Below, one piece after another: positions 3,301-6,300 of a DNA stretch of 64,000 nucleotides. Source of the DNA: Mobula hypostoma. Its lineage: Eukaryota. The translations under genes and the position numbers were made by a program. Positions within the stretch are counted from its first letter, which is position 1. Each line of letters starts with the position of its first letter. The stretch spans positions 43,526,001 to 43,590,000 of the forward strand of contig NC_086097.1 of NCBI RefSeq assembly GCF_963921235.1, given 5' to 3'. The notes under the pieces were generated by a model, which was given only the letters and a program-made list of their open reading frames with translations, had not been told where the DNA came from and did no database searches.

Positions 3301-6300
3301 TCAGCAGCTCTCTTCAGCATACCAATGAGAAGGACGTCCTAAAAATCCCAGTAAGTTTTGTCTAGGATAGATTTATTTTGATTTGATCCACTCAATGACC
3401 TTAAAGTTAAAAATGGATGCTTACCAGAATGCTTGCTTGTTGCAGATGATGCGCCCAAGTAGTAAACAGATTTTGGCGCATTTGCTGATCGAAGTATCCT
3501 GCATATGCAATAAAGGCAGCTGACAGTAAGCAGTCTCCAGCAATGGTGGCCATTTGGTTCTTAAAAGTTTCACTGGTCTTTTCCCAGCGGTCTCGTTCAG
3601 CTGACAAACTCTTCAACAGGGCAGTACTTCGGTTAACCTGAAAGAAGGTTTTACAATTACAATACAAAATGATTTCATCTAACTGAGCCAGAAGGAGCTC
3701 CCTATCACTCTTTACCCTTCATAGAAAGACTTCTGTATAATAATTAAAAGTTCCATTATAAAACAATGTACATAATCATACTCACCTTTGCTTCTACAGC
3801 TGCAAGATCTGCCTTAATGGCTTGGGCTTCAGATATCAGAACAGCATACTCTTCTTTGTAACGTGCAATACTGGTTTCCAGATCACGGATCATTTGCTCT
3901 ACTTCATCAGCCTTCTGCTGGTTCTCTTTTGCATCATCTTCTAGCTTCTGTAGTTCATTGCGTAAAGGTTCGACTCGTTTTAACATATCAGCATAATTAA
4001 GCTACAAATGAAATAATGTGAAATTAATTTATCCAATGCGACTGCTACTGAAAGGGGTAAAACTAGTCTTAAGAAATTTTACAGGAAATAGAAATAAATG
4101 GCAACAAAAACAAATATGCTCCAAGTTAATTTGATGCTCTTTCAACTGATACCGAAAGGTTAAAACATTTTTTTCTCTCCAGATATTTTTTCCTCAGTTA
4201 CTTACCTGTGCAATAGCCCATTTTACCATTGGACCACAAGCCAAAGATGCTCTGTTGACAATTTCATAGTTGTAGCTTGGATTGGACATGTAGTTTTTCT
4301 TCATCTTCTCACGGATAACATCACTGTTGAGTAAAAGATGAGTATTAATACAATTGCTCACTTACAATTTTAAGAGCGGAAATTCAATACAAATACGCTT
4401 TAATAAACAGAAAACTGCTAGTCACATAGATTATATGATGCATAGTAATGAAGTGCCGCAACACAATCAAAATGCAAGAAAGATGTGACTTTTAAAATAA
4501 AAGTAATGAGTACCTTAATTCCTCAGTATTAAAGTTGACTATGCTGCTGATGAAATTATCTCTGATAATAACTTGTCTGATCTTTTTCCAGTCATTTGTC
4601 TCCTCACCCAGCAAGAGACAGATTGATTCTAATGCGAGTTTTACTGCAGCGGGTGGATTGGCCATGGCTCTCACTTCAACAAGATGCTGCTTCTTTATAG
4701 AGCTTACAGCTAATAGAGGGGGCGAAAAGAAATGGGCTTTAAATGAACATGCAAGTGGATGAGGGTGTGTGGCCGTTGCTGGGTGTTAGGAGGAAATTTA
4801 TATGTGAATACCAGCAATACATAATACCACCCAAACAAAATTTTGGGTTCATAAATACTAAATAAAATGCTACTTTTGTAAATAATCCATTGCTTTAATG
4901 ACTCCTTAACTCTAGTATATTGGCTGGTATTCTGTACAATTTCCATCTTCCTCCAGCAGCTGCGTGCACCCCATTATTCACCTGATTTCGTCAGCTGAAA
5001 AATTTACAATGGTCGGAATGAAGTTTTCTCTCATTATGATCGATCGGATCTGTTTCCAGTCAGTTGTACTTTCACCCAGGAGCAGACAGATTGATTCGAG
5101 TGCAAGCTTCACTGCACCTGGCGGATTAGCCATTGAACGAACCTCAACCAAGTGCTGCTTCTTGATCGATTTTACAGCTAATCAGATCAGCAAGATGCGC
5201 CAGAGTGCAAATAAAGTGAAAGAAATGTAAGTTAGGAGGGACAGAAAATTGAAAGATTAATACCACATAGAAAAGACCAATCAGTTGCTTAAAAAGGAAG
5301 AAAATTAACAGGATTATAGTTACAAGGGTAAAAAGATAAACAATATGATATACAGGCAGCAATTAGTACATTATTTCATTTTCATATTGTTTCTCCAGAA
5401 CGCAATTCAAAACAAGTCTAACCATTCTGAGCCTCAATGACAGCAGGCTCTACCATATCCAAATCTTCCTTTACTTTCATCTGCTTGTCAGCAATAATTT
5501 CTTGCTGTTTGTGCAGCTGCTCCTGAATTTCTTGACTCATCACCTATCAAAAAAAAACAGAAGATGTATGAGACCACTCCTCCAGTTGAAACCTTGATTC
5601 TTCTTTTGCTTCAGCATTCAGCTTCCCTGATTCAGCGTTCTTCTCTTGTTAAGCTACCTTTTTCTTTTCAGCCTCTTGTTGGTCCTTCACCATTTTCTTC
5701 AGTTTATCATTGGCTGCTGCATTTTTAACTTCTAGTTCTTGGCTTTTAATTCTGAGATCTCGGCGTAATTCTTCAACCTACAGTGAAAGGATTAAAAAAA
5801 ACAAACTAACTGAATATGAGAAAAAGTCTATTAAGATTATCCTCCTACCAGAAGCAGCCTAATTGGTATTTAGGCTTCCAGCTTTTTAAAGGATTATATT
5901 CAATCAGGACAATTTTTAAAAACATTCTTGGATGCATCATTAAAGGAAAAATAAAATTGGTTGCTCAAAAAAACAGATTCTTGGCCAAGCGGTTATAATA
6001 TCCAAAAGCTACAAAGGAAGGTTTGGAGAAGAAAAAGGAAGAACCTCCTACTGAATTTACAGCAACTGAGAGTTTCCATTTCAAACTGCAAATAAAGTAT
6101 GACTTCACAGGGCACTAAGACTTTAGATCAATGTAAATATCTTAGATACAACAAAGGTAAACTGTACCCAGCTTACGAAGTTACTTAAAATACAAACAGA
6201 AGGCAATCAACCATTAGGGAAAGGGATTAGAAGCATTTCTCATTAAACCTAACGTGCAAAAGCTTTATATTATGCCAAAACAATCTAACTGGAGAATTAG

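Follow-up and report, generated by a model that had tools for sequence, protein, structure and literature searches.

A predicted intron-long RNA stem between two mutually exclusive microtubule-binding-domain exons of the dynein-1 heavy chain gene

Two tandem exons of the cytoplasmic dynein-1 heavy chain gene (DYNC1H1), A and B, are spliced singly, one or the other, between the same flanking exons. The model we favour for this exclusivity, to which we give about an even chance, combines the folding of the intron between them with RNA decay: a 46-pair stem would pull the donor of A and the branch point of B too close together for the spliceosome to use both, so that A and B would not be joined, and decay would act as a back-up. 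Once the stem is closed, donor and branch point are predicted to be about 25 nt apart, compared with about 240 nt otherwise, and the best branch-like motif (4786) would be hidden; the first factor to bind, either U1 at the donor of A or U2 at the branch point of B, would exclude the other. Any A+B product escaping this block would be frameshifted and would decay. The choice of exon would probably be set by proteins, RBFOX motifs being found after A and before B at the base of the stem; a high level of RBFOX would turn A on and B off.

Most of the gene lies on the minus strand of the window, the whole 64,000-nt stretch of DNA analysed, where it was recognized by 48 tblastn segments; among the 14 vertebrate proteins compared, the encoded protein has its top overall identity with that of the skate (0.90 vs 0.76-0.87), so that the animal is likely a shark or ray. 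Exons A and B (Table 1) are tandem-duplicated exons, as seen from their equal length, their shared splice phases and their homologous sequence: 140 of their 196 nucleotides and 75% of their amino acids are identical, and the same codons are split at both ends. Searched genome-wide, the exon sequence gives just two matches, A and B themselves. A match to PDB assigns the exon to the front part of the microtubule-binding domain (MTBD), at human residues 3296-3359, and the exon for these residues carries the disease positions K3336 and R3344 as well as tubulin-contacting residues (PMC3824068, PMC6629372). Of the 64 residues of exon B (4516-4707), 16 are not those of A; one of the replacements, K to S, falls at the start, and another, Q to K, adjoins human K3336. 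The joining of A to B would shift the frame, 196 nt not being a multiple of three, and would bring a stop at codon 11 of B, so that decay alone could hide A-B products.

Table 1. Features of the DYNC1H1 exon pair and of the intervening intron (window positions; all on the minus strand)
Feature	Position	Strand	Basis or remark
Upstream constitutive DYNC1H1 exon, stalk CC1	5423..5541	-	RNA joints 4709/5423, 5177/5423, 5541/5656
Exon A, 196 nt, MTBD front half, mammal-like version, human 3296-3359	4982..5177	-	Translation; PDB match of homologous exon B; groups with vertebrate A exons; spliced in run X18
5' arm of long stem (predicted)	4916..4974	-	+8 to +66 from exon A donor; 3 variable sites in five relatives
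RBFOX-type motif UGCACG	4963..4968	-	+14 after exon A; internal loop of outer stem; UGCAUG in organism B via 4964 change
A-B intron, 272 nt, GT..AG, AG-free zone 28 nt	4710..4981	-	
A+U-rich stem loop, freely varying	4822..4915	-	11/94 variable sites
Inner 7-bp hairpin	4829..4848	-	One pair broken in organism D (4844)
3' arm of long stem (predicted)	4759..4821	-	-112 to -50 from exon B acceptor; branch-like motifs with A at 4805, 4786, 4760; no change in five relatives
Part of 3' arm able to pair alternatively with exon B 4600-4614	4776..4792	-	15 bp, 2-nt bulge, -25.7 kcal/mol
RBFOX motif UGCAUG	4748..4753	-	-44 to -39 before exon B, adjoining free branch-like A at 4744; unchanged in five relatives
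Exon B, 196 nt, second MTBD version	4514..4709	-	Spliced in 4/4 runs; groups with hagfish, lamprey, fish, frog, snake and turtle B exons
Downstream constitutive exon, remainder of MTBD	4206..4323	-	Joint 4323/4514 in 3/4 runs; loose end from exon A in X18

The evidence for either-or splicing comes from the contigs of four runs, whose type was guessed as RNA and which are spliced at GT..AG, placed on 3560-5800. The joint of the upstream exon to B occurs in all four and that of B to the next exon in three; the corresponding joints to and from A occur in a single run (X18, organism F), the second of them as a loose end of 25 nt that agrees with 4299-4323 except for two differences. The mutual exclusivity presumed by the original prediction is thus borne out in these four runs, whose contigs splice to A or to B and never from A to B. 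The absence of the A-to-B joint (0/4 runs) is nevertheless no test of the stem, since contigs lose rare variants and since frameshift decay would clear A+B RNA. The isoform detected varies among the runs. No contig of run X20 (share 0.05) matches the locus, and two RNA runs bearing the same organism label, compared for RNA editing, show no differences. Unspliced contigs span exon A and both its introns (4681-5452) in X9, X10 and X11, the adjacent introns being without cover, and in X18 a B-containing contig extends into the downstream intron (4299-4710). Splicing may be slow around the pair, a matter on which contig depth gives no ranking.

The complementarity between the two halves of the A-B intron is as originally described. 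The four outer blocks (4759-4767:4967-4974, 4777-4782:4953-4958, 4792-4798:4938-4944 and 4806-4821:4916-4932) are present and have symmetry centres at 4866.5-4869; the inner hairpin (4829-4835:4842-4848) is centred at 4838.5; on the minus strand, a single bulge and a single U-G pair interrupt the regular pairing of the 16-bp block; and the stem begins 7 nt from the donor of exon A (4981) and ends 49 nt from the acceptor of exon B (4710). In the predicted minimum free energy (MFE) structure of the minus strand, every one of these blocks and the helices connecting them form one stem of 46 pairs, two of them G-U, closed by a 94-nt loop, and the long stem by itself is predicted to contribute -45 kcal/mol. 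The pair probabilities of the core are 0.83-1.0, also when both exons and the flanking introns are included, and those of the outermost pairs are only 0.3-0.9, the weak ones (0.3-0.6) being found near the donor and the branch region.

A motif scan places branch-like adenosines within the 3' arm, at 4805, 4786 and 4760, and also beyond the arm, at 4744. In the closed stem, 4744 and 4740 are predicted to lie at 23-27 nt from the donor of A, compared with 238-242 nt in the linear RNA. The steric threshold between a donor and a branch point is about 50 nt (PMC7969005, PMC5740500), and the predicted effective distance falls below it. Steric exclusion in the linear RNA, by a distant branch point as in exons 4a/4b of OGDH (PMC7969005), was rejected on the scan for motifs and AGs. 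The first branch-like motif (yUnAy) is found at +103 from the donor, and the nearest upstream AGs are at -28 and -70 from the acceptor; since the first 100 nt hold no branch-like motif and only 28 nt are AG-free, a linear route of the OGDH type does not fit. The lack of a linear steric route, together with the predicted shortening of the distance by the stem, is what makes us favour exclusion by folding.

How far does the stem exceed what chance would produce? The original prediction had expected the folding energy to surpass that of shuffled controls, and for the whole intron this expectation failed: the MFE has a z of -1.40, with 20 of 200 shuffles as good, and a repeat gave -1.16, with 28 of 200. 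The duplex formed by one half of the intron against the other was matched by 4 of 1000 shuffles, as was the stem-alignment score (4/1000), and the trimmed segment 4759-4974, whose boundaries were set post hoc, has a z of -3.2 with 0 of 200 shuffles as good. When 25 distinct introns in DYNC1H1 were compared by duplex z, the A-B intron came lowest (-3.0), the next being -2.3 and -2.2; the comparison covered introns of 79-626 nt, under a limit of 900 nt, with frame-consistent ends (one of them 2 nt off), after removal of one duplicate row. Folding is better for the plus strand than for the strand that is transcribed (-65.6 vs -59.6; z -4.75 vs -3.21), which does not favour a role in RNA.

The weak whole-intron score and the better fold of the non-transcribed strand count in favour of the stem being a decayed DNA inverted repeat or a product of chance, its arms being kept for splice signals and protein sites and the exclusivity being achieved without structure. 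We regard such an origin as unlikely. It would gain from the conservation that also precedes exon A (see below), from the two wobble-keeping transitions in the arms, which by a hand estimate could arise by chance roughly one time in ten, and from the far stronger inverted repeat of a control intron in the metagenome locus L008. It is opposed by the conservation of both arms and not just of the 3' arm, by the recurrence of stems, made of unrelated sequence, at this intron in distant animals, and by the lack of a second copy in the genome. A dispersed inverted repeat such as a MITE, an origin named in advance among the findings that would refute the prediction, is ruled out by copy number: a DNA search of the 3.48-Gb genome, which skips very common words, gives one match, and the exact pattern of the arms occurs at one locus. 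Nearby, a 14-nt perfect inverted repeat (4006-4019/5368-5381) is A+T-rich, and in organisms C and D a change at 5373 disrupts it.

Variation was counted in five other organisms (B, C, D, E and F), whose divergence is only 2-4% and in which many of the changes are common by descent; one of the compared sequences, X15, is a low-depth contig. The A-B intron has only 16 variable sites, of which 3 fall in the 122 nt of the arms, 11 in the 94 nt of the loop, 2 in the 49 nt of the tail and none in the 7 nt at the donor, so that the arms vary less than the loop (Fisher p 0.010). Among the paired positions 2 of 92 vary (p 0.018), at 4916 and 4931, both from A-U to G-U on the transcribed strand; the third change in the arms, at 4964 (run X11), concerns an unpaired position. 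The conservation foreseen for the arms is therefore seen in part, as a lower variability and the retention of pairing at both changed pairs, and the compensatory double change that was also foreseen is absent among the five relatives (2-4% divergence, 16 variable sites). Compared with the whole upstream intron, the difference of the arms has a p of 0.09, and the ends of introns that adjoin alternative exons are conserved in any case. The 149 nt before exon A (5178-5326) have 3 variable sites, vs 14 in the distal 96 nt; this stretch, which is pyrimidine-rich, contains UCUU five times and is free of AG over 111 nt, is likely a regulated acceptor. Since it is as quiet as the arms, conservation of splice signals accounts for part of the pattern in the arms. 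Judged by exon sequence, none of the 71 metagenome loci resembles a vertebrate, and the prokaryote and viral collections likewise yielded no vertebrate orthologous intron DNA.

Taken together, the inverted complementarity is real, single-copy and apparently selected. As for the steric block that the original prediction had derived from it, the either-or RNA, the quieter arms that keep their pairing, the single copy and the predicted distance of 23-27 nt speak for it, and the energy of the whole intron, which remains within that of the shuffles, and the lack of two-sided change speak against it.

Two RBFOX-type motifs and an alternative helix with exon B were absent from the original prediction. 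The UGCAUG at 4748-4753 is the sole UGCAUG on the minus strand in 3600-6000, and GCACG, contained in the motif that follows exon A, is a primary RBFOX motif according to bioRxiv 10.1101/840272, which also treats the positional rule of RBFOX and RNA bridges. By this positional rule, the motifs here would switch A on and B off. They open a second, rather improbable way of reading a real and selected stem, in which it would act as a bridge and a mask tuning the A/B ratio, bringing the RBFOX motifs together and hiding the branch-like motifs, and in which the exclusivity would come from regulation of the RBFOX/PTBP type and from the decay of frameshifted A+B or skipped products. The position of both motifs at the base of the stem, UGCACG after A and UGCAUG before B, agrees with this, as do the conversion of the first motif to UGCAUG by the single unpaired change of the arms, the positional rule and the bridges of the preprint just cited, the frameshift with its stop at codon 11 of B that follows from the 196-nt length, the difference of the detected isoform among the runs and the fivefold occurrence of UCUU within 150 nt of the start of A. 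However, the motifs already lie within 20 and 45 nt of their exons, so that no bridge is required; 24 UGCAUG occur on the minus strand of the window, so that one in 272 nt is not rare; and a stem closing 7 nt from the donor suits exclusion better.

The alternative helix would allow a two-state switch like that of ATE1, which we consider very improbable. The segment 4776-4792 would pair either with the 5' arm, leaving B exposed and the donor of A hindered, or with 4600-4614 of exon B, whereby the acceptor of B would be looped in and the donor of A freed. Such a switch has a precedent in ATE1 (PMC7797038), and the helix is predicted at -25.7 kcal/mol, the best structure containing it lies only 2.8 kcal/mol above the MFE, and 4 of 300 and 2 of 200 synonymous shuffles are as good. 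It was, however, chosen post hoc from 33 region pairs, its ensemble probability is 0.008 and none of six invertebrate loci has such a helix; in addition, the intron stem would form first during transcription, and the conservation of the exon is uninformative. An upstream docking site was sought as well, and neither arm has a strong partner in the flanking introns, the best being the upstream-proximal intron with the 5' arm (2/100) and the loop with the downstream intron (0/100), the latter A+U-rich and diffuse.

The exclusion by folding that we favour can be set beside several known systems. In the exon 17 cluster of Dscam, steric hindrance is reportedly combined with RNA structure, in work attributed to Yue et al. 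in 2013. Both are two-exon clusters in which an intronic structure is proposed to aid steric exclusion; unlike the Dscam case, which was tested by experiment, ours concerns another gene in another phylum and is predicted alone. A stem bringing the donor and the branch region under the threshold, which characterizes the Dscam type, is present here in the prediction (46 pairs, 23-27 nt). Exons 2 and 3 of α-tropomyosin exclude each other sterically by means of a distant branch point. Like these and exons 4a/4b of OGDH, the dynein exons are duplicated, are separated by a short intron and would have a donor-branch distance under about 50 nt; unlike in these genes, where the distance is linearly short and the AG-free tract long, the AG-free zone is here 28 nt and the distance would be short only when the RNA is folded.

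Competing pairings operate in exons 7a/7b of ATE1 (PMC7797038) and in exon 6 of Dscam (PMC6071210). The intronic pairing beside duplicated exons is a common trait, and in those genes it controls double inclusion; in contrast to their one element with two competing partners, a single stem dominates here and the competing helix is weakly supported. In the case of dynein itself, a mutually exclusive exon was described in Schistosoma mansoni DHC1 by Pillmann et al. 2011 (PMC3228551; also PMC5100056). What it has in common with the pair described here, and with isoforms X1/X2 of fishes and frogs, is the presence of two mid-gene exons, whose codons are split at both ends, in a cytoplasmic dynein heavy chain; unlike here, the accessible parts of that report give neither the domain of the exon nor a mechanism. 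In the abstracts and passages that our literature search covered, nothing was found on the domain, the function or the stem of the MTBD exon pair; tables of the Kollmar or Jin laboratories may list the pair. The accessible parts of PMC11802352, PMC13762713, PMC6071210, PMC12962786, PMC1331979 and PMC9303857 contain nothing on dynein splicing.

A known kind of mechanism would be at work in a gene that is new for it and important, with a predicted function. In mouse and human, according to PMC3824068, the dynein-1 heavy chain exists as a single isoform. Two old versions of one exon form a natural pair with which to ask how motor affinity depends on the binding domain and whether tissues use different motors, and the pair is relevant to the zebrafish and Xenopus models of dynein. 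The 272-nt intron is, for its part, a compact test case for exclusion via folding and not via linear distance, of which the accessible parts of the literature document few vertebrate cases.

The exon pair is widely distributed. Database proteins with a B-type exon come from hagfish, lamprey, bichir, sturgeon, teleosts, frogs, a snake and a turtle, and the RefSeq DYNC1H1 isoforms X1/X2 of fishes and frogs show that the B type already exists among database models; the bird and mammal rows inspected (3 of those listed) have A alone, which is no test of loss. In an exon tree of 47 rows and 64 columns, with 23 of 44 forks open, the A exons and the B exons of vertebrates fall into two supported groups of their own, and each includes a lamprey, so that the pair predates the jawed fishes. 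Proteins of insects, nematodes and molluscs likewise have this exon in duplicate, and the 47-row tree does not separate one ancient duplication from repeated ones across phyla.

Among the 71 metagenome loci, 8 have the doubled exon, of which 6 are distinct (L032 and L033 were excluded as copies of L031), all with the same boundaries; loci with both flanking exons but a single copy of the MTBD exon are also present. A long stem across the intervening intron was found in 3 of the 6 invertebrate loci (L040, 3/200 shuffles as good; L041, 8/200; L045, 0/200) and was lacking in the other 3, compared with 1 of 32 other introns of such loci (p 0.009); these control introns come partly from animals closely related to one another and received 40 shuffles each, and L040 also has a tandem repeat. 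The invertebrate stems have no evident sequence in common with the stem described here. In the locus L008 (2700-3750), an inverted repeat with a z of 12 spans the intron after a single MTBD exon and is probably an inserted inverted-repeat element.

Could most non-mammalian animals then make, from one gene, two dynein-1 motors with different microtubule-binding feet? In this broader picture, which we hold as a tentative possibility that is somewhat doubtful, an intron-long RNA zipper would be the means, recurring in sharks and in several invertebrate lineages, by which the two foot exons stay separate, and would have been rebuilt from unrelated sequence, RBFOX would flip the choice by tissue, and mammals and birds would have given up the switch. 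A GCAUG stands right after the donor of the second duplicated exon in 4 of the 6 invertebrate loci (at +5 in L011, L031 and L037 and at +10 in L045), a placement that suggests control by RBFOX with opposite polarity. Fish-like read-through translations (P0001, P0002 and P0006) imply A-B introns of 116-170 nt with pyrimidine-rich codons and a donor beginning like the weak one here; judging from protein only, bony fishes may use a short linear distance instead. Elsewhere in the window, strong blocks of GC skew at 12000-18000, 28000-42000 and 58000-64000 lie within long introns and are probably retroelement insertions.
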